IMG/VR virus record: IMGVR_UViG_3300027833_000012 | Coordinates: 1 to 48,256 of that record | DNA from: a virus | Taxonomy: Duplodnaviria; Heunggongvirae; Uroviricota; Caudoviricetes | Direction: 5' to 3' (one strand) | DNA length: 48,256 nucleotides | Shown here: positions 1,824 through 42,451 of the stretch, in pieces | How the letters are laid out: every line of letters starts with the position of its first letter | Numbering within the stretch: position 1 is the stretch's first letter | The notes under the pieces: generated by a model | Database searches by the model: none | What the model was told of the DNA's origin: nothing | Seen by the model: the letters and a program-made list of their open reading frames with translations, nothing else | Translations under genes and position numbers: made by a program

Positions 1824-3476
1824 TTAATAGTTATTTTTATCTTTATTTGGGGCATATTTCTCTAATAACTCCAATCTTTTATTAAGAACCTTCTCACTAG
1901 CTGGGTAAAAATTATCACCTCTATTTAAACTCTTAGGCATAAGACTCATTTGCTTATTCTTTCTATCCCTTATTGTTAAGAAGTCATCGTCTTGACCTTC
2001 ACCGAATGGTTTATAAATGTTAGTACCATCAAAGAATGAAACCATAGCATCTTCACCATCTTCATAATCAAAAACAATTGTTGTTTTATTCTTAATAGCT
2101 TCTTCAGAACGTAACAATTTAAATGGTCCTGGTAATGTTGTTTTACCTAAAGTTTCTGAAAATTTAACAACACCAACATCTTCTGAACCCATAGCACATA
2201 AGGCATACTTACCTGATAAGTTATCTCTCTTAAGGTTGTTTCTTCCTCCACCACCTTGTCCGAATAATCCCCAAGCATATGGTGCGTAACCCTTTTCAAT
2301 CATGGCCATCATAATGTCCCACATGTTTTGGTGTGTCATACCATCACCCTCTATAAATCTAAGGGTTGTACCAAAATACCATGTCTTACCATTAATTACT
2401 TCACTAGTACAAAGCCCATTCTTTATAGCTAATTCTATTGTCCAAATAACCTGTTCCAATGCATCCCCAGAATCTGGTCTTGCCACTACAATTTTACCGT
2501 TATTTAACTCAACACTTTTTTGTGCTAAAGGAAGTAACATATTTTCTACAGCATAAAAGTAATCGTTACAGTCGGCTACCATAGAAATAAAAGAATTATC
2601 AGTACAAGAATTGTATATAGCTTGGTAACAGTCATTTTCAAATTCAAAACCTTGTACGTTTCTATGTGCTAAAGCATTTACTGAATTACCAACTGGGGTT
2701 TCACCAGAATTTTTCCAAGCTTGGTATGCACCAGAGCATGTGTCAGTTCCAGGGAATGTGTATAATTGTGCCTTACCCATTATTTCAGATTCTCTAGCAC
2801 AAATACCAGCTCTATCACCAAAGTCAGTTAACATAATTGAGGCTAGGAAAGTTGTTTCCTCATCACTTAAATTTGGATTAACCATGTTAACCATACTTTT
2901 TAATTTAAGTAACCAGTGCTCATTTTGAGTTATCTTTTCTGATACCGCCCAAGTTTGTAATAATTTAGATTCAAACCAAGCTGCTAATATACCCATTCCA
3001 TCAACATCACAAACTATTTGCATGTAAGGTTCATTTGGATACACAACAGAACCTTCTGGTAATGCTTTAATCTTAATTGGTGGACGACCATTAAATTCAT
3101 CTACCACTCTTCTCCATATATTTTCTGGGAATTCATACTCAGATAAGCCATTTGGACCTACTTTAAAGGTGGATAAGAATCTTTTGGTATCATCAATCTC
3201 TTGGTGAGTAATCGGCTCATAGAACAGTTCTTCTAGGATATCACCTAGACCACCAAAAATGATTCTATTATCACCCTCAGTGTAAATTGCAGAATCGATT
3301 GTGATTAATTGTTTTCTAAATACACAGTAATATGTTGACTTATTTTTAACTAATTCACTCTCAAATTTATTTGAACCAACTGTATATGCATCAGCAGTTA
3401 ACAATCTAGGTGTCTTATAAATTTTCTTATTAGGTAAAATAACTTCTCTTTTGATTTCCTTTACTTCTATACTCAT
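1824..3476 (-). CDS. nadV: nicotinamide phosphoribosyltransferase (NAMPT/NadV)
   Basis: LLTADAY, DFGDRAG, AHRNVQ, ARPDSGD, GQGGGG and LKRD motifs; adjacent to NMNAT-Nudix. Confidence 0.88.
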   Translation of the reverse strand: MSIEVKEIKREVILPNKKIYKTPRLLTADAYTVGSNKFESELVKNKSTYYCVFRKQLITIDSAIYTEGDNRIIFGGLGDILEELFYEPITHQEIDDTKRFLSTFKVGPNGLSEYEFPENIWRRVVDEFNGRPPIKIKALPEGSVVYPNEPYMQIVCDVDGMGILAAWFESKLLQTWAVSEKITQNEHWLLKLKSMVNMVNPNLSDEETTFLASIMLTDFGDRAGICARESEIMGKAQLYTFPGTDTCSGAYQAWKNSGETPVGNSVNALAHRNVQGFEFENDCYQAIYNSCTDNSFISMVADCNDYFYAVENMLLPLAQKSVELNNGKIVVARPDSGDALEQVIWTIELAIKNGLCTSEVINGKTWYFGTTLRFIEGDGMTHQNMWDIMMAMIEKGYAPYAWGLFGQGGGGRNNLKRDNLSGKYALCAMGSEDVGVVKFSETLGKTTLPGPFKLLRSEEAIKNKTTIVFDYEDGEDAMVSFFDGTNIYKPFGEGQDDDFLTIRDRKNKQMSLMPKSLNRGDNFYPASEKVLNKRLELLEKYAPNKDKNNY

Positions 3477-4071: not shown

Positions 4072-5037
4072 TTACTTTTTATTAAAAAAAGGTTCTTTAA
4101 AGTATATATTATTTTTAATTATCTTTAATAGTGGTATGTGTTCTTCCATAATGGTATCTTCACTTAACATATCGAAATCGAATAGTTTACATTCAACTAT
4201 ATCATCTGAAGCCTCAAGTTTTTTAATATCCCATATTTCACCACAAAATAATGATGTCATGATAGTATCACGTTCTCCACGATATCTCCAATCATCAATT
4301 TTTGTTGACCCTAAGAAAGTTAAAGATTTTAAATCACACTTAGTCTCTTCTTTGAATTCCCTAAGAGCAGCATCTTCTAATGAATCATCTGTTGTGTCAA
4401 CATAACCACCTATAAATCTAAACTTAGGTTCGTTTTGTTTTCTACCCATTAGTATTTTACCTTCCCTAGTCCAACCTATAACATCAACAGTTGGATTAGG
4501 TTTAGCATATCTACCAAAATTAGCCTTAATTACACCTTCACGACCACTTAATGAAGTGATTCTAGTCTTAGAAGTTTCTAATCTAATTTCAGTTGCAGAG
4601 ATGGCTTTGGTACGGGTACCAGATAATTCTATGGTTTCATACTTACCCTCATAGTATGGTATGAATGAATCTCTACCACCATATAAAACAGCTGATGAAT
4701 TACCAAAAGCGTTAGATATTTGAGTATCTAATTTATTAGACCAAATATCATCGTATCGTTCATCAAGTTGTGGTAATATTACGATATTATCGTTACAGTA
4801 ATGCTGTTCTATCATAATTTTCCTAGTTAAAAAATCCAATGGATTTTTTTCTGTTTGAGTAACTCTAGAGACCCCTAAGAAAATTATAACACTATTATGT
4901 TTAGAAATAACATATTCTATTAGTTCTCTGTGTTTTTCGTGTAGGTAAGGTGTTTGAAAACGTCCTACAATGACACCTACATCTATGTTTGAAGTATCAA
5001 TTGAACCGTCAATTGGTTTTAGTTTATATATCTCCAT
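4072..5037 (-). CDS. nadM: bifunctional NMN adenylyltransferase / Nudix (ADP-ribose) hydrolase
   Basis: GRFQ-x3-H-x2-H nucleotidyltransferase motif, ISATEIR, Nudix box GGYVDTTDDSLEDAALREFKEET. Confidence 0.9.
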   Translation of the reverse strand: MEIYKLKPIDGSIDTSNIDVGVIVGRFQTPYLHEKHRELIEYVISKHNSVIIFLGVSRVTQTEKNPLDFLTRKIMIEQHYCNDNIVILPQLDERYDDIWSNKLDTQISNAFGNSSAVLYGGRDSFIPYYEGKYETIELSGTRTKAISATEIRLETSKTRITSLSGREGVIKANFGRYAKPNPTVDVIGWTREGKILMGRKQNEPKFRFIGGYVDTTDDSLEDAALREFKEETKCDLKSLTFLGSTKIDDWRYRGERDTIMTSLFCGEIWDIKKLEASDDIVECKLFDFDMLSEDTIMEEHIPLLKIIKNNIYFKEPFFNKK

Positions 5038-16897: not shown

Positions 16898-18049
16898 TTA
16901 GAAAGGTAATTCTTCAACTTCCTTTGACCTATTATTATAAGCATCCGTTATAAACTCCGTATATTCAGCGTTGAATGATTCAATATTATTTCTAACATCA
17001 TTATATATGTTTTCTGGTACACTAGAATTATTAAACCCTTTAAATTGTCTTAAGACTAATTTTACCCCTTTATAACTATTAATACCAACTTCTAATGTAT
17101 AATCACCAATACTAAGTATTCCACTATTCCCACTATTAATATTTTCAATATATGAAGCAACACAATGAGCTTTTTGCATACCTTCTAATGCTAATCGTTT
17201 TGTGGTTTTAATAATTTCATAATTAAATACCTCAGCAAATTTTAAATAAATCTCAAGATTTTTAAGTTCTCGGTTATCATATGAAAAAACTATATTGGTG
17301 ATTTCTTTAGCATAATTATCATGCTCATTACGTAATCTTTTTATAGACCAAGAACAATTTACAACCTTACCTAAAGTCTTGGCCATCTTTAACGTATCAT
17401 AAAATAAATTATACTCCCCATCACTTATATAATGAAAATTTTCAATATTCTTATAATATGATGAATAATGATGAATATAAGTATAACTATAGTTATGTTT
17501 AGTCGATAACTTTTTTATAACGTTATTCGGTAATTTATAAATAAATTTTTTCATCTTAGTTCCAGAATATAATTTATTTTTAATTATAGTATTAAAAGAA
17601 AGTTTACGTAAATCACCCATATTACCATCATTACATATTTCCCATAGTGTTCTAACCCAACTAAACTTTTCTGTTAAGCATTTTAAAATGTCATCTCTAT
17701 AGTCATAACGTACTGTTGTATTTAAAGCATCAATAGTTAATAATCTAACCGTTTTACCATGAGCAAAATAAAATTTACCACCCTTATAAATTACATTACA
17801 TACACGTTTTTCAGATGAATACATTTTATTAACCTTACTAATACCGTATTTCTTAACTAGAAGTATAATATTAAAATCACCATTATCTTTCTCAAATAAT
17901 TTAATGTAGTATTTATGATAATCTTCTGGAACATTATTCATAAAGACCACCCTGGTAAAATATTTATTCTTCTTATATAACTCAACAAGGTTGGTTATAT
18001 TTTTATTCTCGTAATCCTTTACCATTGTAAACTTATCTCCAACTGCCAT
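16898..18049 (-). CDS. PcfJ-like domain protein
   Basis: C-terminal LALEGMQKAHCVASY...TLEV...LRQFKGFNN. Confidence 0.7.
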   Translation of the reverse strand: MAVGDKFTMVKDYENKNITNLVELYKKNKYFTRVVFMNNVPEDYHKYYIKLFEKDNGDFNIILLVKKYGISKVNKMYSSEKRVCNVIYKGGKFYFAHGKTVRLLTIDALNTTVRYDYRDDILKCLTEKFSWVRTLWEICNDGNMGDLRKLSFNTIIKNKLYSGTKMKKFIYKLPNNVIKKLSTKHNYSYTYIHHYSSYYKNIENFHYISDGEYNLFYDTLKMAKTLGKVVNCSWSIKRLRNEHDNYAKEITNIVFSYDNRELKNLEIYLKFAEVFNYEIIKTTKRLALEGMQKAHCVASYIENINSGNSGILSIGDYTLEVGINSYKGVKLVLRQFKGFNNSSVPENIYNDVRNNIESFNAEYTEFITDAYNNRSKEVEELPF

Positions 18050-18107: not shown

Positions 18108-18134
18108 AAAAAAAACCATAACTTTCGTTATGGC
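18108..18134 (-). terminator. terminator closing tRNA operon 1
   Basis: CCATAAC-GAAA-GTTATGG hairpin plus T-run on the minus strand. Confidence 0.8.
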
Positions 18135-18139
18135 TTGTG

Positions 18140-18250
18140 TGGGGTGTGAGGGAATCGAACCACTCGTTTGTCAATTTTACAGATTGTTTTTTTTATGTTT
18201 GCTGCAATTATTCTTTACAGAATAAGTTTTTCCAACATTTTAAACACCCC
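18140..18250 (-). ncRNA. tRNA-Tyr(GTA)-like RNA with CAGCAA-containing insertion
   Basis: Acceptor GGGGTGT/ACACCCC-A, T-loop GTTCGATT, anticodon hairpin CAAT-CTGTAAA-ATTG, extra TTATTCT/AGAATAA stem followed by TTGCAGCAA. Confidence 0.6.
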
Positions 18251-18259
18251 TTGTTATAG

Positions 18260-18330
18260 AGCACAATGTGAGAATCAAACTCCGTCTTCTACTTGGAAGG
18301 TAGACGCTTTATCATTAAGCTACATCATGC
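18260..18330 (-). tRNA. tRNA-Gly(TCC)
   Basis: Cloverleaf, loop CTTCCAA, U73; T-loop TTTGATT divergent. Confidence 0.8.
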
Positions 18331-18409
18331 ATTGGTCTTTATGTAGGTGGTACCACCTTGTAGAGCCATAAAGAAACTTAACCTACTTTATCATATTGAA
18401 TTAATAAAA

Positions 18410-18661
18410 TTATTTATTTCTAAATTCTAACTCTTTTTTAATTTTTTCATATACTTCACAAGATTTTCTGTATTCCTGGATAAAAAAACCTCTTTCACAC
18501 CCTTTTAAAGGTAAATGTAACATACTACTATCAGAGAAGTTAATATCCTTTAACTTCTCTGATTTTATTTTTTTTAATTGTGTTTTATTAAATGTTGAAA
18601 TATCATTTAACTCAAAAGCTTCTAATAAATCATCTAAACTCATTTTACTGTAATTATTCAT
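18410..18661 (-). CDS. hypothetical protein inside the tRNA array, with its own TAnnTTTG promoter
   Basis: 83-aa ORF; promoter at 18680-18687. Confidence 0.6.
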   Translation of the reverse strand: MNNYSKMSLDDLLEAFELNDISTFNKTQLKKIKSEKLKDINFSDSSMLHLPLKGCERGFFIQEYRKSCEVYEKIKKELEFRNK

Positions 18662-18717
18662 ATCTTTATGTTTTAATTACAAATATACAAATTAATTATC
18701 ATAATTACAAATTATTG

Positions 18718-18786
18718 AGCGAGAAATGGGACTCGAACCCACAACCTTCTGATTGGCCAGACGCTCTACCATTGAGCTATTCTCGC
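18718..18786 (-). pseudogene. tRNA-Gly(GCC)-like gene with a 3-nt deletion in the anticodon arm
   Basis: Near copy of 18973..19044, but the arm reads TCTG-GCCAA-TCAGA instead of TCTGG-TTNCCAA-TCAGA. Confidence 0.6.
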
Positions 18787-18835: not shown

Positions 18836-18912
18836 TGGAGCACACAGACGGGTTCGAACCGACAACCTCCGCATTACAAGTGCGGGACTACTTCCACATG
18901 AGCTTTGTGTGC
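18836..18912 (-). tRNA. tRNA-Thr(TGT), CCA encoded
   Basis: CCGCA-CTTGTAA-TGCGG arm, GCACACA/TGTGTGC acceptor. Confidence 0.85.
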
Positions 18913-18972
18913 ATTTGTATGTCTTTACCTCAGTAACATACGTGAAAGATTTAATACTTCTTAACTACTCTG

Positions 18973-19044
18973 AGCGAGAAAGGAATTTCGAAATCCCGAC
19001 CTTCTGATTGGTAACCAGACGCTCTGCCTCTGAGCTATTCTCGC
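18973..19044 (-). tRNA. tRNA-Gly(ACC), A34 anticodon
   Basis: Gly-type body GCGAGAATAGCTCAG...TTCTCGC-U73; loop TTACCAA. Confidence 0.75.
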
Positions 19045-19094
19045 ATTTCTAATTCTACGCTCGTCCAAAGGAGTCTATGAATTAGTAACAGTCT

Positions 19095-19730
19095 TCACTC
19101 CTTTTTCATTTTTCGACCCAATCTCCAGCCTTCTGGAATTAAATCGCCTTTATTTATTTTCTTACTTTCAACTTCATTGGTAATCCAACACTTACCGAAT
19201 TGAGAATTATTTGACCCAACATTTTTAGACTTCCTCATCTTCTTTTTAGTTTCCTCACTATGTAATTTACCTTTAAATGTTGCTAATCTACCTTTTAAAG
19301 CTTTTTTAACTTTTTCTTTATATTTTGGGTCTTTATGCAAATTTTTAGTTATTTCACTTTTAATTTTCCTACCTTCATCACTTTTCCAAAATATATTACC
19401 AGCTTCAGAACATTTTTTCTGATGTTCTTCATCCCTAAAACCACCTTGACCACCTACTCTTAGATTCATACAGTCAACCTTTGCAATCTCGTTAAGATTA
19501 ACTATTTCTTCTTCTCTAGATTTTAAAATTTCTCTAGTTTCACAATACTCAAGTATTTCACTAATGAAATTATCTTTTCCATGTTTTCTAATAGCTAATT
19601 TAATTCTATTTCCACTACCTAAATAACCATCATCTAAGTTATCTGTACTATGCATCCCTATATAATATTTACCACTTAATACGTTTGTGGTTTTATATAT
19701 GAAGTGATACTTTTTTTCTTTTCTTGCCAT
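19095..19730 (-). mobile_element. free-standing Seg-like GIY-YIG homing endonuclease with NUMOD3-like motif, inserted in the tRNA array
   Basis: FIYKTTN...YYIGMH...YLGSG...AIRKHGKDNF..EILE; HSEETKKKMRKSK...NSQFG. Confidence 0.88.
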
Positions 19731-19789
19731 ATCTATCTTTTACAATAAATATGCAGAAAAACGTTAAAAGTACAAAAACGTGTCTAAAG

Positions 19790-19871
19790 TGGGCCCAGAG
19801 GGATTCGAACCCCCAATGTCTTTCGACCACAGATTTACAATCTGCTGAGCGACCAGTTGCTCAATGAACCC
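19790..19871 (-). tRNA. tRNA-Tyr(GTA)
   Basis: GCAGA-TTGTAAA-TCTGT arm, class II variable arm. Confidence 0.9.
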
Positions 19872-19882
19872 ATTTAATATTG

Positions 19883-19954
19883 AGCTGATATCCAAAATCG
19901 AATTGGAATTTCTACCATACCAAGGTAGCGTAATAGCCGTTATACTATACCAGC
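19883..19954 (-). tRNA. tRNA-Thr(GGT)
   Basis: CTACC-TTGGTAT-GGTAG arm. Confidence 0.85.
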
Positions 19955-19959
19955 ATTTG

Positions 19960-20030
19960 TACCCCCTAACGGTATTGAACCGATTTCCCCTATTTAAAAG
20001 ATAGGTGCTTCACCTTAAAGCTTAGAAGGC
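19960..20030 (-). tRNA. tRNA-Lys(TTT)
   Basis: CCTAT-CTTTTAA-ATAGG arm (U31-A39). Confidence 0.88.
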
Positions 20031-20036
20031 GTATTG

Positions 20037-20124
20037 TCCGAGAGGTGGGACTCGAACCCACGGTGGAGTCATTAACTCGTCTGGTTAAAAGCCAGGACCG
20101 TTCGCCAACTACGGATACTCTCGG
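20037..20124 (-). tRNA. tRNA-Lys(TTT) with long variable arm
   Basis: CTGG-CTTTTAA-CCAG arm followed by a GAGT-TAATG-ACTC variable hairpin; 88 nt. Confidence 0.78.
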
Positions 20125-20130
20125 ATATTG

Positions 20131-20212
20131 TGGGTCCAGAGGGATTCGAACCCCCAACGCCTTTCGGCCACAAATTTACAGTCTGCTGAGCGACCAGTTG
20201 CTCAATGAACCC
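20131..20212 (-). tRNA. tRNA-Tyr(GTA)
   Basis: Loop CTGTAAA; paralogue of 19790..19871. Confidence 0.9.
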
Positions 20213-20233
20213 ATTTATTTCACAAATTATTTG

Positions 20234-20304
20234 TCGATAGACCAGGAGTTAAACCTGGACCTACACCCCCAATGGATGTCGCACTGTCATTATACTATCT
20301 ATCG
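20234..20304 (-). tRNA. tRNA-like gene, undetermined (Pro-like C1-G72/A73; loop CATTGGG)
   Basis: Acceptor, D and T stems pair; A33 and T-loop TTTAACT are non-canonical. Confidence 0.5.
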
Positions 20305-20309
20305 AATTG

Positions 20310-20380
20310 TTACCCTCACGAGATTCGAACTCATACAACAAAAGTCAAAGTTTTGTATGCTACCATTACATCAGAGGGCA
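20310..20380 (-). tRNA. tRNA-Gln(TTG)
   Basis: CAAAA-CTTTGAC-TTTTG arm, U1-A72. Confidence 0.88.
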
Positions 20381-20386
20381 AAATAG

Positions 20387-20486
20387 AGTAGAAAGGGGGA
20401 TTCGAACCCGTAGTTATATTGAGTACTCTTTAACTACACCCACTTGGAACCTCGATGTTCCCGTGCTATCATTACACTATTTCTAC
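20387..20486 (-). tRNA. tRNA-like gene, undetermined (6-nt loop ATCGAG, very long variable arm)
   Basis: GTAGAAA/TTTCTAC acceptor, GGAAC/GTTCC stem, GTAGTTA/TAACTAC variable hairpin, GGTTCGAATCC T-arm. Confidence 0.5.
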
Positions 20487-20491
20487 ATTTG

Positions 20492-20561
20492 TCTAATGGG
20501 ACAGATTCGAACTGTCGTACTTCAGATACCAAATCTGACATGACCCTGGCTTCGCCACTAG
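20492..20561 (-). tRNA. tRNA-Pro(TGG), divergent D-arm
   Basis: TCAGA-TTTGGTA-TCTGA arm, C1-G72, A73. Confidence 0.72.
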
Positions 20562-20620
20562 ATAATTTTAATTCTACGCTTAAACTTCAAGATTCCTATG
20601 AATTAATAACAGTCTACTAG

Positions 20621-20695
20621 TCGAATAGAGAGGACTCGAACCTCCATGATGTCCTAGTCCCAAACTAGGCGACTTACCAATTAGTCCACTACTCG
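20621..20695 (-). tRNA. tRNA-Pro(TGG)
   Basis: CCTAG-TTTGGGA-CTAGG arm, C1-G72, A73. Confidence 0.9.
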
Positions 20696-20704
20696 AATTA
20701 TTTG

Positions 20705-20800
20705 TCGGGGGTATGGGATTCGAACCCATGGCAAATACGAACAGCGTACCCGCACTGGTTTCCAAGACCAGCCACTTCAACCTTACTCGTGCAACCCCCG
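20705..20800 (-). tRNA. tRNA-Pro(TGG) with long variable arm
   Basis: CTGGT-CTTGGAA-ACCAG arm, C1-G72/A73, ~25-nt variable hairpin GCGGGTACG...CGTATTTGC. Confidence 0.7.
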
Positions 20801-20890: not shown

Positions 20891-20926
20891 AAAAAACCCA
20901 GTTAAAATTTTTATCTTAACTGGGCT
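20891..20926 (-). terminator. attenuator terminator of tRNA operon 1
   Basis: GCCCAGTTAA...TTAACTGGGT plus T-run; leader segment GACTGGGT (20998-21005) can pair with its 5' arm. Confidence 0.85.
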
Positions 20927-20958
20927 TCTTTATCGTATTTTTTTTTGGTTTAAATGAA

Positions 20959-21066
20959 TTAACCAATTAATTCATCACTTCCTTTTTTATACAACTCACC
21001 CAGTCTGCTCGGCTTTTGGCCTTGCGGATACTGTTTCCCTTGATATGTCGTTGTATAATTTTTCAT
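20959..21066 (-). CDS. leader peptide 1, MKNYTTTYQGKQYPQGQKPSRLGELYKKGSDELIG (35 aa)
   Basis: Lies between promoter 21112 and terminator 20891; codons 2-19 are 17/18 K/Y/T/Q/G/P, the tRNA species found downstream. Confidence 0.85.
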   Translation of the reverse strand: MKNYTTTYQGKQYPQGQKPSRLGELYKKGSDELIG

Positions 21067-21111
21067 CTTAATTTTTCTTTATGGGTTTATACCCTTTGTT
21101 AATATATATGA

Positions 21112-21119
21112 CAAAGATA
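21112..21119 (-). promoter_or_regulatory. TATCTTTG promoter of tRNA operon 1, with upstream TTGACAAA
   Basis: About 60 nt near-identical to the promoter at 35699. Confidence 0.82.
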
Positions 21120-21206
21120 CTAAAAGTTATCTAATTTGTCAAGTTTTTTTTAATTTATTTTTTAATTTATTTATAATTCACTGACTATCAGTTTATTATA
21201 TCTTTG

Positions 21207-22731: not shown

Positions 22732-22771
22732 CTAAACTTTATCCGTTTTGTCAAGTTTTTTTTAAACTTTT

Positions 22772-31660: not shown

Positions 31661-31731
31661 GGAATATTGTAGGATTCGAACCTACGACTGCGGCTCTTTG
31701 GCCACCGTGCTAACCTCTACACTAAATATTC
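31661..31731 (-). tRNA. tRNA-like gene, undetermined (6-nt loop CAAAGA)
   Basis: Intact acceptor, D and T arms; GTGGC/GCCGC stem. Confidence 0.5.
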
Positions 31732-33094: not shown

Positions 33095-33124
33095 AAAAAA
33101 AAACTCGAATCTTTCGAATCGAGC
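33095..33124 (-). terminator. attenuator terminator of tRNA operon 2
   Basis: GCTCGATTC-GAAA-GATTCGAGT plus T9; leader segment GGTCGAGT (33165-33172) can pair with its 5' arm. Confidence 0.8.
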
Positions 33125-33149
33125 TTGTTATTTAGTTTAGTTGTTACAC

Positions 33150-33242
33150 TTAACTTTTGACACTACTCGACCTCCCCAGGCTAAAATCAGCCTCGGCATT
33201 TGCTTCAAACGCAAAATCAAATATGTAGTTAAATGTATTCAT
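33150..33242 (-). CDS. leader peptide 2, MNTFNYIFDFAFEANAEADFSLGRSSSVKS (30 aa)
   Basis: Lies between promoter 33303 and terminator 33095; codons 4-20 are 13/17 F/D/A/E, the tRNA species found downstream. Confidence 0.85.
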   Translation of the reverse strand: MNTFNYIFDFAFEANAEADFSLGRSSSVKS

Positions 33243-33302
33243 CTTTTTTATTTTTATAATTTTAATCAGAAGTATCTTTTACCTCTTTATTTTAAATATA
33301 CA

Positions 33303-33310
33303 CAAATATA
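33303..33310 (-). promoter_or_regulatory. TATATTTG promoter of tRNA operon 2
   Basis: -7 box with upstream TTGCAC. Confidence 0.78.
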
Positions 33311-33339
33311 CTAAAAGTTTATTTATTGTGCAAGTTTTT

Positions 33340-33546
33340 TTATTTATTTATTTCTGCAACGTCAGAAATTTTAACTTTAAATCTAATTCTTTCACCAGAA
33401 TCAGTCTTTTCCATAATTAATATTGTTGGTGATAAATCAACTGTGTCAAAAGTTTTGAACGTATTTAAAATAGTAAAATCACTATCTTTTAATGTCTCAC
33501 TTAATTTCTCAAATATTTCACTATAAATTTTATTATTATCCATCAT
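33340..33546 (-). CDS. hypothetical protein
   Basis: 68-aa ORF after the promoter at 33562. Confidence 0.6.
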   Translation of the reverse strand: MMDNNKIYSEIFEKLSETLKDSDFTILNTFKTFDTVDLSPTILIMEKTDSGERIRFKVKISDVAEINK

Positions 33547-35501: not shown

Positions 35502-35535
35502 AAAAAAAAGTCCGATACTTTTATGTATCGGACTT
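35502..35535 (-). terminator. attenuator terminator of tRNA operon 3
   Basis: AAGTCCGATAC...GTATCGGACTT plus T8 abutting tRNA-Cys; leader segment CTATCGGGTT (35579-35588) can pair with its 5' arm. Confidence 0.88.
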
Positions 35536-35564
35536 ACTATATTATTTAAATGAAATCAACTCAC

Positions 35565-35648
35565 TCAATTAACAGCATAACCCGATAGGTCTACTAAGAC
35601 TAGTAAACATAAACAAAGGACTGATAATATGTTGTTAATTATATTCAT
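35565..35648 (-). CDS. leader peptide 3, MNIINNILSVLCLCLLVLVDLSGYAVN (27 aa)
   Basis: Lies between promoter 35699 and terminator 35502; codons 8-21 are 12/14 L/V/C, the tRNA species found downstream. Confidence 0.88.
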   Translation of the reverse strand: MNIINNILSVLCLCLLVLVDLSGYAVN

Positions 35649-35698
35649 TTTTAATTTAAATTTTGTGGCACTTTTTGTACCGTTATTAATATATATGA

Positions 35699-35706
35699 CA
35701 AAGATA
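35699..35706 (-). promoter_or_regulatory. TATCTTTG promoter of tRNA operon 3
   Basis: Near-identical context to the promoter at 21112. Confidence 0.82.
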
Positions 35707-35747
35707 CTAAAAGTTATTCAATTTGTCAAGTTTTTTTTTAATTTATT

Positions 35748-37340
35748 TTATAAATCTTCAGTATACCCGTTATAATCTTGTCTTTTAAAATCTGATTCTG
35801 GAAATACCATGTTTTTAATTTTAGTTAAAATGTTAGCAGTCTTCTTATCCATATTTAAATTTAATCTAACTTCTTCACTTTCATTATGGAGACCTCTAGT
35901 CAATAATTTAATCACTTGGTAAAGCTCATCATCTTTAAAATTAGATGAGTTATTAGCGTTACCTTTAGATATGTGTAGTTTATTAAAAATCTTAGCGTTA
36001 TTAGGGTTTTCCAATGCATCTTTAAGACTTTGTTTATCAATACTGTAATCGTTAGTTTTAATACCCATTTTCCTATAAGTGTCAACATATAAAGAATGAC
36101 TAAACTTTAAATTACCTTCAAAATCATTTTTAACCTTTTTTAATAATTGTTCTGAAATTACATTTGTGTCAAATATGATATTTAATTCGTTATTATAATA
36201 TTTAAAATTACTTATTGTCATATCCATACCGCTTAATGTTAAAGTTTTACCTTTAAACATACGTAAAGCGTCATCCATTAGGTTCACACCTCTACTTTCC
36301 CTATCTTTTTGCATTTTATCAGCAGCTCTTCTATATCTCTGAATTAATTCAGTGGCTATTTTTTTAACTTCTTGAGGTGTTGGTTCTGGAGGTAATTCCT
36401 CTATTATCTCTTGTTCAATCTGTTCTGGTTCAATCTGTTCTTGTTCTGGAGAATCTTTTAATTTATCCGCTATCTTCTGTGCGAATTTACCGATTAAATC
36501 CTTAATACCTTCATTAAGTACTACCTTATTTTCGCTAGTAAGAGTATTCTCATATACTCTTTCTCTCTCACCTTCTGGTTTTTTTGAATTTTTAATAGCC
36601 CATTGTAACCTATCTCTAAAACCTTTATCAATTATTACACTATCATCATTAATCTCTGGGTCAATAGTATTAAATAATTTATCTAAAAATTTCTTATCTT
36701 TTAACCTACCAACAGTTACATATTCATGTTTTTTACCATTATGATGTTGATAGACTTTATGAGTTATTATGTCAACAAATATACTTTCTGTTTTATCATT
36801 ATTTGCATTCTCTCCATCTCTTATTAAAAAATTTAATGTAAATCCAGGATTATTATGTGAGTTACCATAATAGGCGTGCACAAATTTATATGGTATATGT
36901 ATATCCTTTAATACATCCTTTACTGTTGGTAAGAAATAAATTTCAGTTCCTTTAAATTTCCTTAAACCATGATTTATTAATTCATTAGCTTTATCTTCAC
37001 CATAATCACTAATGTCACTAGGTGTATTAAGTGCTATCATTGCAGCTCTGCTATATTTTTGGAAATAATTATTTGCTATTTTTTTAACTTCTTGAGGAGT
37101 TGGTTCTGGAGGTAATTCCTCTATTATCTCTTGTTCAATTTGTTCTGGTTCAATCTGTTCTGCTTCTGGAGAATCTTTTAATTTATCCGCTATCTTCTGT
37201 GCGAATTTACCAATTAAATCCTTAATTCCCTCATTAAGTACCACCTTATTTTCATTAGTAAGACTACCCTTATTTAAGTGTCTTTGTTCAGCTAATAAAT
37301 TAGCCTTAAGCATGTTTAATTTTTTATCTTTTCTTCTCAT
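35748..37340 (-). CDS. putative virion internal protein with a duplicated ~63-aa header module
   Basis: MRRKDKKLNMLKANLLAEQ start; LTxENKVVLNEGIKDLIG...PPEPTPQEVKKIA occurs twice. Confidence 0.7.
   Translation of the reverse strand: MRRKDKKLNMLKANLLAEQRHLNKGSLTNENKVVLNEGIKDLIGKFAQKIADKLKDSPEAEQIEPEQIEQEIIEELPPEPTPQEVKKIANNYFQKYSRAAMIALNTPSDISDYGEDKANELINHGLRKFKGTEIYFLPTVKDVLKDIHIPYKFVHAYYGNSHNNPGFTLNFLIRDGENANNDKTESIFVDIITHKVYQHHNGKKHEYVTVGRLKDKKFLDKLFNTIDPEINDDSVIIDKGFRDRLQWAIKNSKKPEGERERVYENTLTSENKVVLNEGIKDLIGKFAQKIADKLKDSPEQEQIEPEQIEQEIIEELPPEPTPQEVKKIATELIQRYRRAADKMQKDRESRGVNLMDDALRMFKGKTLTLSGMDMTISNFKYYNNELNIIFDTNVISEQLLKKVKNDFEGNLKFSHSLYVDTYRKMGIKTNDYSIDKQSLKDALENPNNAKIFNKLHISKGNANNSSNFKDDELYQVIKLLTRGLHNESEEVRLNLNMDKKTANILTKIKNMVFPESDFKRQDYNGYTEDL
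36355..37263. repeat. ~190-bp direct repeat (about 36355-36543 and 37075-37263)
   Basis: Near-identical nucleotide blocks 720 nt apart. Confidence 0.9.
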
Positions 37341-41161: not shown

Positions 41162-42451
41162 TTAATTCTGTATTTCGATTAAGTATGCAATTGTACACTG
41201 CTTACCGTTATATATTATAAATTCATCATTTCTTAAATCAACACCACCATGTGCATATACACTATCATAACCTTCATTATCCATAACCTTTTTAGATAAC
41301 TTATAACAAGAACTATCATGAGTCTTAATGTGTTTTTGGTTACCAACATGTACATCAAATAAAGCTAAATAACCCTTATTCGAACCACCATTAGTCCAAT
41401 AAGAACCCCTAAGTGAACTATAACCTATCGATTTTTGAGCCTTATTAGCAAAATAAATACCATCACCAAACATACTACCAGTATGTATAGCACCAGAAGG
41501 TCTAATCATAAGTCCAGTTTGTATGATATTAAACCAATTTTCATTCCTGGAACCATGCCAGTAAAGTCTATTCTTTTTAACTCTAGCTTTATTAAAGTTT
41601 TCATCAAAATCAGCTTGAGTTCTTTCATTGATACACTTAAATATTTTCTTAGCTTGTTTTTTATTCTTACCTAATAACTTATATATTAATTTAAGTCTTT
41701 CTTCATCTTCCTCCACAGAAACTTTAAGACCCATTTGTTCAAGTAGTGTTATTTCATCACCCTTATCTTCACCAATCTTGGTGTTAACACTATCTCTTTG
41801 TTGTTTAAGTAATCTTACTTGACCAGCCATAGTATCAAGAGTATCTTGTTCATTAGATAAAAAATCATTTACCTTATCAAGATTATTTTTAACATCAGAA
41901 GTGTTAATTAAATAATCTCTAACATCTTTCATTTCTCTTGGTATTATACTGTATAAGCTAATTAATAATTCATTAAGTTTATTAACATCCATACCTATCT
42001 TAACTGATTTAACAGCATCATTAAGTATGTCTTGAGCCGAATCAATTTGTTTTTGTGTTACGGTATCTTGTGTAACCTTATAATTCTTCTGTATTGCTTT
42101 ATTTGCAAAACTCATTAATTCATCAAAAAGGTTTCTAACCTTAACACAACTAATATCAGCAGTTTTACTTTTATTAGTACCTGTATTATCAGTAATCTTT
42201 TCAGATACCATGTCGGTAACATCTTTATAACCCTTACTATTACTAGTCTTATTCTTATAAATTTTATTCCACTCGTATGATTGTTTATAAACAGTAGTTA
42301 ATCTCTTACCAACTCTACCATATTCACACTTTATCTTACCATCACTTTGTTCTTCCATGATGTAAACCTTATTAGATTGACCCGTCTTACCGTTATCAAC
42401 CGAAACGTGAATAAGCTTTGCAAATTTTAAACCGTTTTCTTTAACTATCAT
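41162..42451 (-). CDS. poly(ADP-ribose) polymerase-like protein (WGR domain, helical domain, catalytic ART domain)
   Basis: EYGRVG WGR-like motif; YSIIP helical domain; WHGS...MFGDGIYFA..KSIGYS...NDEFIIY with H-Y-E triad. Confidence 0.9.
   Translation of the reverse strand: MIVKENGLKFAKLIHVSVDNGKTGQSNKVYIMEEQSDGKIKCEYGRVGKRLTTVYKQSYEWNKIYKNKTSNSKGYKDVTDMVSEKITDNTGTNKSKTADISCVKVRNLFDELMSFANKAIQKNYKVTQDTVTQKQIDSAQDILNDAVKSVKIGMDVNKLNELLISLYSIIPREMKDVRDYLINTSDVKNNLDKVNDFLSNEQDTLDTMAGQVRLLKQQRDSVNTKIGEDKGDEITLLEQMGLKVSVEEDEERLKLIYKLLGKNKKQAKKIFKCINERTQADFDENFNKARVKKNRLYWHGSRNENWFNIIQTGLMIRPSGAIHTGSMFGDGIYFANKAQKSIGYSSLRGSYWTNGGSNKGYLALFDVHVGNQKHIKTHDSSCYKLSKKVMDNEGYDSVYAHGGVDLRNDEFIIYNGKQCTIAYLIEIQN

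Follow-up and report, generated by a model that had tools for sequence, protein, structure and literature searches.

An array of tRNA genes in a phage genome is preceded by a small unit, denoted cassette A in what follows, that consists of a promoter, a short open reading frame (ORF) whose codons call for the same six amino acids as the tRNAs downstream, an RNA segment capable of alternative pairing and an intrinsic terminator, and that is likely a ribosome-mediated (leader-peptide) transcription attenuator of the trp/his type gating the array. All of these elements were found in the sequence, supporting the attenuator interpretation put forward in a preliminary description of the region; the mechanism itself is inferred from sequence alone, in the absence of expression, ribosome-profiling or mutational data. 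Cassette A is one of four in the genome, and the match between leaders and arrays is not due to chance.

The window that we have analyzed, 48,256 nucleotides in length, opens a 187-kb IMG/VR phage record, of which it makes up the first 48 kb and for which CheckV estimates a completeness of 53% (the whole record is referred to below as G000). The genome is ∼29% GC with nearly all of the genes carried on the minus strand, and PHROG matches in the window are to a nicotinamide phosphoribosyltransferase, a PARP-like "polymerase", tail-fibre domains and a homing endonuclease. A genome-wide motif count gives 63 promoters of the Bacteroidota consensus, TTG-N17-22-TAnnTTTG, on the coding (minus) strand versus 15 on the plus strand. 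Shine-Dalgarno sequences are nearly absent, with an SD-like 4-mer in 6% of genes and A-rich upstream regions, as established from 119 long ORFs, and among cultured phages the PARP-like gene has counterparts above 30% identity in Cellulophaga phages only. Because of the promoter consensus, the SD-free genes and the PARP-like gene common to Cellulophaga phages, a marine bacterium belonging to the Bacteroidota is the most likely host. The sole match in a megablast search of the region against cultured phages was a tRNA-Met. A phage-encoded tmRNA lies outside the window (G000 84758-85124, minus strand).

Anatomy of cassette A and its tRNA array

The elements of cassette A and of the unit that follows it are listed below in the direction of transcription, with coordinates given in the numbering of the window.

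21137-21142, minus strand: promoter -33 element TTGACA, part of a promoter block of ∼50 nt
21112-21119, minus strand: promoter -7 element TATCTTTG, Bacteroidota TAnnTTTG type (motif search)
21083-21094, minus strand: small 5'-proximal hairpin GGGT-ATAA-ACCC in the 5' UTR (folding)
20959-21066, minus strand: leader ORF of 35 codons plus TAA, encoding MKNYTTTYQGKQYPQGQKPSRLGELYKKGSDELIG (translation)
21010-21063, minus strand: regulatory codon run, codons 2-19, with 17/18 Lys, Tyr, Thr, Gln, Gly or Pro
20998-21005, minus strand: antiterminator strand GACTGGGT, codons 21-23, 5' side of helix P1, pairing with 20925-20918
20932-20995, minus strand: inner antiterminator domain, helix P2 plus stop-codon hairpin (folding)
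20891-20925, minus strand: intrinsic terminator, hairpin 20925-20896 and a run of six T to 20891 (folding, ∼-17.5 kcal/mol)
18836-20800, minus strand: regulated array, Pro ×3, Gln ×2, Tyr, Lys ×2, Thr, Tyr, Gly(acc), Thr (tRNA search, Rfam)
18113-18786, minus strand: tail of the unit, with a Gly-like tRNA (18717-18786), an internal promoter (∼18710), an 83-aa ORF, tRNA-Gly(tcc) (18259-18330) and a closing terminator (18136-18113)

The preliminary description had placed an ORF, a codon run, a pairing segment, a hairpin over the stop codon and a terminator on the minus strand at this position, and each of these held; the ORF is 35 codons long, while only 23 residues had been quoted. The array composition given there was likewise correct with the exception of Gln, of which there are two rather than one.

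Transcription is inferred to start a few nucleotides past the -7 element, at ∼21107. Almost exact copies of the ∼50-nt promoter block occur at 35680-35732 of the window and at G000 69998-70047; across cassettes A (21090-21145), C and D this promoter and initial-transcript block is 92-96% identical, and the promoter of cassette B differs. Recent duplication, gene conversion or tight co-regulation are all possible origins of such near identity. Small hairpins analogous to that in the 5' UTR can be read, without folding calculations, in the three sister cassettes.

The leader ATG at 21066 is found in the A-rich, SD-free context that is typical of the long ORFs of this phage, and we infer from the sequence that the leader is translated. 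The sole residue of codons 2-19 outside the set is Asn at codon 3, for which the array holds no tRNA. Every one of the 17 in-set codons can be decoded by an anticodon of the array, which comprises Pro(tgg) ×3, Gln(ttg) ×2, Tyr(gta) ×2, Lys(ttt) ×2, Thr(ggt), Thr(tgt), Gly(acc), Gly(tcc) and the Gly-like gene: ACA and ACG by tgt, GGG by tcc, GGC by acc or the gcc-like gene, CAA and CAG by ttg, AAA and AAG by ttt, CCG by tgg and TAT by gta. The earlier impression that the leader uses atypical G/C-ending codons was also confirmed, as ACG, GGG, CAG, CCG (twice), GGC and AAG have relative usages of only 0.01-0.28 in the genome and 8 of 19 leader codons end in G or C, versus a genome-wide GC3 of 0.18.

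Several of the tRNA genes are unusual. One of the Pro(tgg) genes is a weak Rfam match (29.9 bits) with an anticodon loop that reads TGG. The tRNA-Pro(tgg) at 20704-20800 (minus strand) has 97 nt, its variable region including an additional hairpin of 9 bp, and the tRNA-Lys(ttt) at 20036-20124 (minus strand) measures 89 nt, both over-long for their identities. The Gly-like gene at 18717-18786 (minus strand) is a near copy of the adjoining Gly(acc) from which three anticodon-loop bases are missing, leaving a 6-nt loop, GCCAAT; neither this gene nor that at 31661-31731 (minus strand) was assigned an identity by Aragorn, whose intron and low-threshold settings returned spurious calls only. A homing-endonuclease ORF (19095-19730, minus strand; phrog_314, E=1.9e-41) splits the array between Gly(acc) and Tyr.

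It had been recognized in the preliminary description that a main tRNA transcript starting downstream of the terminator would refute attenuation. This is mostly not borne out: a motif scan of this strand shows no host-type TTG...TAnnTTTG promoter between 21112 and 18710. There is a sigma-70-like pair, TTGACA-17-AACAAT, at 20868-20840 in the 93-nt spacer between terminator and tRNA-Pro, lacking the host -7 motif. We have provisionally rejected it as the real promoter of the array, given that it has no TAnnTTTG box of the kind used throughout the genome and that the relatives described below have no such spacer; their first tRNA starts 16-23 nt past the T-run, so that there is no room for a separate promoter. 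Transcription of the last Gly tRNA is probably driven in addition from the internal promoter at 18710.

Upstream of cassette A lies an ORF-free region (22600-21400), 3' of twin host-type promoters at 22754 and 22669, that contains a match to GOLLD RNA (RF02032; 21817-22227, minus strand) spanning the full model, 1-416, with 57.7 bits and E=4.5e-14, below the gathering score of 150. This GOLLD-like stretch is followed by tRNA-like elements and two leaderless tRNA-Met genes (21359-21206). Since no terminator is seen between 21206 and 21142, transcripts from the GOLLD-like and tRNA-Met region may enter the leader.

Correspondence of leaders and arrays within and between phages

Four cassettes are present in the 187-kb record, denoted by the one-letter amino acid codes of their sets as A (KYTQGP), B (FEDA), C (LVC) and D (HWSNIR). 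The sister cassettes are as follows.

33095-33340, minus strand: cassette B, with promoter, leader ORF 33242-33150 containing the run FDFAFEANAEADF, and terminator 33129-33098
35502-35732, minus strand: cassette C, with the shared promoter block, leader ORF 35648-35565 containing the run VLCLCLLVLV, and terminator 35535-35508
G000 70045-69815, minus strand, outside the window: cassette D, with leader MRTINIHMISSSNWRRNSSR... before His, Trp, Ser, Ser, Asn, Asn, Ile and Arg ×3

The terminator of cassette C adjoins tRNA-Cys, with Leu, Val, Val, Leu and Leu thereafter. That of cassette B is followed by a 105-aa ORF and then by Phe, Glu, Asp, Glu, Ala, one unassigned tRNA and Asp; an ORF inserted between terminator and array is seen in this unit in both G000 and the related locus G004, and in G000 a further promoter-like site directly precedes tRNA-Phe. 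Together the four arrays cover 19 amino acids, and the two Met tRNAs are leaderless, behind their separate promoter pair. Just upstream of cassette D, outside the window, there is a tRNA with the CUA anticodon of amber suppressors (G000 70961-71037, minus strand).

In order to quantify the match each leader was given a segment score, with +1 for a residue within the set of the array, -2 for one outside it and the best segment taken, and compared with 632 small ORFs of 20-45 codons from all six frames. The leader of cassette A scores 16, the next best of the small ORFs reaches 8, and none of 200,000 i.i.d. peptides of phage composition attained 16. When all four leaders are scored against all four arrays the diagonal elements of the resulting matrix are 16, 10, 10 and 14, with off-diagonal elements of at most 6 and of at most 2 for the A leader against the other arrays. 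Each leader ranks first or second among the 632 ORFs for its own array (P ≤1e-5 under the i.i.d. null), and all of the array amino acids are found in the cognate leader in every case (6/6, 4/4, 3/3 and 6/6). A genome-wide search for a host promoter, a small ORF and a terminator in succession produced matches only ahead of tRNA arrays. The simple terminator scanner missed the bulged D-type terminators, and unit D as well as its counterpart in the relative G006 were placed by eye.

Related loci were obtained by means of the PARP-like ORF (41162-42451), which led to 15 loci with 52-69% identity whose tRNA regions were retrieved; searches with the array-flanking ORFs 35748-37340 and 16898-18049 gave no relatives. 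Homologues of all four cassettes are present in the relatives with array content kept, as illustrated by MTTTTTYQTQYQPKGGKPFKVTGYVKLLDLTTI before Pro, Gln, Lys, Lys, Gly, Gln, Gln, Tyr, Tyr, Thr and Thr, and a pattern search for the P1/terminator motif located further copies. At the start of the run, positions 2-6 exchange T, K and Q, so that changes stay within the set. Beyond the run the octamer GACTGGGT is retained, in a frame offset of 1 in G000 and L005 and of 2 in the other relatives; the peptide itself is not conserved (SRLGELYKKGSDELIG versus FKVTGYVKLLDLTTI), and the C-type leader of G002 is frameshifted relative to those of G004 and G006 with its nucleotides conserved. Past the run, the frame-independent octamer, the non-conserved C-terminal peptide and the frameshifted leader show that selection acts on the RNA. 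In the L/V/C family the in-ORF copy changes along with the terminator arm (TATCGGGT/GTCCGATA, GTGGGC/GCCCAT, TGGGCT/AGCCCA), and in the D family arm and in-ORF segment again vary together (GCGGGT/CCCGAT, GTCGGGT/CCCGAC). Taken together the alignments favour a regulatory RNA with a translated codon run over a conserved small protein. The correspondence is not without exception, as in relative L014 a Phe tRNA lies within an L/V/C unit whose leader has no Phe codon. In the huge phage LR756500.1, the best tblastn relative, the tRNAs are dispersed singly and no convincing matched leaders were seen.

The strongest comparative argument comes from the cultured Cellulophaga phage phi4:1 (NC_021788.1), of a different genus, which shares only the PARP/CCA-enzyme neighbourhood with the phage studied here. 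Between 87.0 and 90.0 kb it carries three cassettes that are not homologous to those above and that partition the amino acids differently, with leaders tracking the re-partitioned tRNAs.

phi4:1, unit 1: leader MKIQRLHLQELEQP... (run QRLHLQELEQP) before Pro, Glu, Gln, His, Leu, Leu, Arg
phi4:1, unit 2: leader with GTG start, QLTKTGITVIDKTKGARAYLGDTVIG, before Ala, Lys, Ile, Gly, Met, Asp, Thr, Val, Arg, Met
phi4:1, unit 3: leader MKTNYCTYNNSNWSFSY... before Tyr, Ser, Asn, Trp, Phe

The diagonal of the phi4:1 score matrix is 11, 18 and 5, the last becoming 10 once Asn is counted, and each of the three leaders matches its own array only. Annotation of these small ORFs is incomplete. The first is unannotated, with an ATG ∼4 nt past the -7 box (2066-2134 of L010, the retrieved locus of NC_021788.1), so that its mRNA is apparently leaderless. 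The annotated start of gp075 (L010 2990-3109) is a TTG that falls within the promoter of cassette 2, and the real leader probably begins at the downstream GTG. The 33-aa annotated ORF gp076 was considered as a leader and rejected, as it overlaps what appears by eye to be a tRNA-like stretch. Unrelated leaders end alike, in ...GSDELIG for cassette A (20980-20959) and in ...GDTVIG and ...GSDGLIG for phi4:1 (L010 ∼3085-3109 and 4846-4870), which may reflect a constraint on either RNA or peptide, and complementary arms CTGTTAT/ATAACAG can be read around the stop codon of phi4:1 unit 2, comparable to the stop-codon hairpin of cassette A.

Matches in the Caulobacter phage phiCbK (NC_019405.1, 47-52 kb) are suggestive and weaker, and we regard its cassettes as possible candidates only. 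Here MSKTYRQFVRQIQVVRNI... and a terminator precede Phe, Val, Ile, Ile, Val, Gln and Gln, and an ORF rich in S, L, K and P (gp335) and a terminator precede Pro, Pro, Lys, Lys, Leu ×3 and Ser ×2. One of the phiCbK small ORFs is annotated as a hypothetical protein; the rest are unannotated or mis-started.

Alternative folds, proposed mechanism and competing explanations

The pairing of codons 21-23 with the 5' arm of the terminator, suggested in the preliminary description, is confirmed. Helix P1, formed by GACTGGGT and GCCCAGTT (20925-20918), has 8 bp and a stability of -11.3 kcal/mol (p=0.007 versus dinucleotide shuffles), and encloses P2, in which GTTGTAT (20995-20989) pairs with ATACGAT (20938-20932), as well as a hairpin at 20976-20953 that spans the stop codon (20961-20959), also as had been described. 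The minimum free energy (MFE) of the complete antiterminator domain, P1, P2 and stop-codon hairpin, is -23.5 kcal/mol (z=-5.0 versus shuffles), compared with -17.5 kcal/mol for the terminator hairpin alone, and the leader as a whole is more stable than its shuffles, with z=-7.0. The leader has no match in Rfam above the gathering threshold, and a scan of the whole window at this threshold gave tRNAs only.

Cotranscriptional folding with and without a ribosome footprint had been proposed as a check of the model. In silico, transcripts cut before the 3' arm of the terminator pair the 5' arm with the ORF segment, and the antiterminator domain forms in them with a ribosome placed at codon 8, 12 or 16; for the full-length transcript the MFE structure is always the terminator. 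The antiterminator forms as well without a ribosome or with one at the stop codon, and for this reason thermodynamic folds do not separate the two states, whose discrimination would, we infer, rest on kinetics and sterics. A ribosome stalled at the last codons of the run (17-19) would itself cover GACTGGGT.

The same architecture recurs in all 20 units for which it was evaluated. The best duplex between ORF (plus spacer) and 5' arm is located directly after the run in each of these, at nt 44-78 (nt 55-78 in G000-type units, nt 44-61 in phi4:1), the stop codon is separated from the terminator by 23-36 nt, and the RNA between the last codon of the run and the terminator loop is invariably more stable than dinucleotide shuffles (mean z=-3.0), with most 5'-arm bases paired with ORF bases in its MFE structure. 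Matched ORF-arm pairs give duplexes of -11.0 kcal/mol on average versus -8.0 kcal/mol for pairs taken from other families (permutation p ∼1e-5), and the own pair ranks first in 9 of 15 representatives. Several B-type units, as well as phi4:1 unit 2, show weak P1 complementarity.

In the mechanism that we propose, host RNA polymerase would initiate at the TTGACA/TATCTTTG promoter and a ribosome would translate the 35-codon leader, of which codons 2-19 would be read by exactly those tRNA species that are encoded downstream. The 3' half of the ORF and the spacer would give rise to the antiterminator domain, with P1 occupying the 5' arm of the terminator. When the tRNAs are scarce, uncharged or damaged, slow decoding would leave the ribosome waiting upstream in the run, the domain would fold during transcription, P1 would capture the 5' arm before the 3' arm has been made and the polymerase would read into the tRNA genes. 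With fast decoding the ribosome would instead pass through codons 21-36, unwinding P1, P2 and the stop-codon hairpin, so that the terminator would form and transcription stop. The supply of six tRNA identities would in this way be under negative feedback. That ribosome position decides termination is an inference, not supported as yet by expression data, and the kinetic competition and its polarity are similarly inferred. Three features would find an explanation in the model, namely the extension of the ORF well beyond the run, the conservation of its 3' half at the level of RNA instead of peptide, and the hairpin across the stop codon.

Other explanations merit consideration. Translation of the leader might control the array by a different route or with the opposite polarity, read-through requiring efficient translation (a positive feedback, through ribosome-assisted antitermination or shielding from Rho or RNases), or it might tune the processing or stability of the precursor. 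In favour of this possibility, polarity is not set by thermodynamics, as the antiterminator forms in silico irrespective of the ribosome, and the G000 ORF runs 12 codons past GACTGGGT, so that a terminating ribosome leaves this strand uncovered. We nevertheless think it unlikely: the run ends just upstream of the arm-sequestering strand without overlapping it, which is the geometry expected if stalling gives read-through; a ribosome traversing the translated 3' half has to unwind the antiterminator domain, which is contained in it; and the canonical hairpin and T-run point to control of termination.

Far less probable, in our view, are explanations that dispense with the regulatory codons altogether. 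Were the ORF an ordinary small gene of the phage, equipped with a promoter and a terminator of its own and matching in composition by coincidence, the array would be expressed from other promoters or by constitutive leak-through. The sigma-70-like hexamers at 20868-20840 and the fact that small ORFs are common in phage tRNA regions speak for this. Against it, 4/4 cassettes here and 3/3 in phi4:1 match their own arrays only, the C-terminal peptide is not conserved and the shared nucleotides are read in different frames, there is no host-type promoter past the terminator nor room for one in the relatives, and cassettes of this kind are found only ahead of tRNA arrays. An RNA-only leader, in which a structured 5' element senses tRNA or protein directly in the manner of a T-box, or marks a processing site, with the ORF incidental, can draw on the high degree of structure (z=-7.0) and on conservation of the 3' half at the level of RNA. 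It provides no rationale, however, for a 17-codon, six-identity run that stays open and in frame in all relatives with swaps confined to the set, and the leader has no Rfam match at gathering threshold. It is also the case that a T-box senses one tRNA via one specifier codon. We consider both of these explanations very unlikely, and ribosome-mediated attenuation remains the preferred reading.

Relation to known systems and implications

The closest designs are the multivalent leaders of the enterobacterial ilvGMEDA (Ile/Leu/Val) and thr (Thr/Ile) operons, which together with trpL, hisL, leuL and pheL have in common with cassette A a promoter, a short ORF with a regulatory run, mutually exclusive antiterminator and terminator hairpins and the regulated genes beyond. 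In these systems, as proposed here, the speed of the ribosome on the run reports the supply of charged tRNA, and the multivalent leaders monitor more than one amino acid. The phage cassette differs in that it regulates tRNAs themselves and not biosynthetic enzymes, that a single leader covers six identities and samples synonymous codons, including rare ones, that it belongs to a Bacteroidota phage and has no Shine-Dalgarno sequence, and that the antiterminator is largely inside the 3' half of the ORF without a clear conserved 1:2 anti-antiterminator.

Among decoding-machinery targets the nearest example is pheST of E. coli, where the pheM leader controls phenylalanyl-tRNA synthetase by leader-peptide attenuation. 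As in cassette A a component of the decoding machinery is attenuated rather than a biosynthetic pathway, but the target is a synthetase, a single amino acid is monitored and the gene is cellular. T-box riboswitches also sense tRNA status and choose between antiterminator and terminator in a 5' leader; they bind one uncharged tRNA directly, without translation, whereas the phage sensor would be a translated multi-codon ORF, and no T-box was found in the window in the Rfam scan at gathering threshold. The cassettes of phi4:1 and the candidates in phiCbK have the same order of promoter, codon-matched mini-ORF, terminator and tRNA block as cassette A, but their leaders are non-homologous and their partition of amino acids is another one. 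In the full-text literature that we searched there is no description of leader-peptide control of tRNA genes.

A bolder reading, which we regard as rather less likely than not, is that the four cassettes form a complete, partitioned circuit for the surveillance of decoding. In such a circuit 19 amino acids would be distributed over four multivalent sensors with Met constitutive behind the GOLLD-like RNA, and each block would be induced on demand upon depletion, for example by host anticodon nucleases or through phage-driven loss of host tRNAs, serving both counter-defence and homeostasis. The design would have arisen or spread in unrelated lineages, namely Bacteroidota jumbo phages, Cellulophaga phi4:1 and possibly phiCbK.

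The tRNA genes of phages are commonly viewed as a fixed supplement for codon-usage mismatch or as spares against tRNA-cleaving defences, and the control of their expression is largely unknown. The presence of equivalent cassettes in the cultured phi4:1 makes the present idea directly testable, and the matching of leader to array offers an annotation rule for small ORFs in phage tRNA regions. For synthetic circuits, the cassettes suggest a naturally occurring component with which the availability of tRNAs could be reported. If the attenuator model is correct, tRNA genes would join amino-acid and synthetase genes as targets of attenuation, here with an unusually multivalent sensor that covers six identities and samples synonymous codons, and the phage would gauge the speed of decoding directly, topping up each subset of tRNAs only when it is needed.
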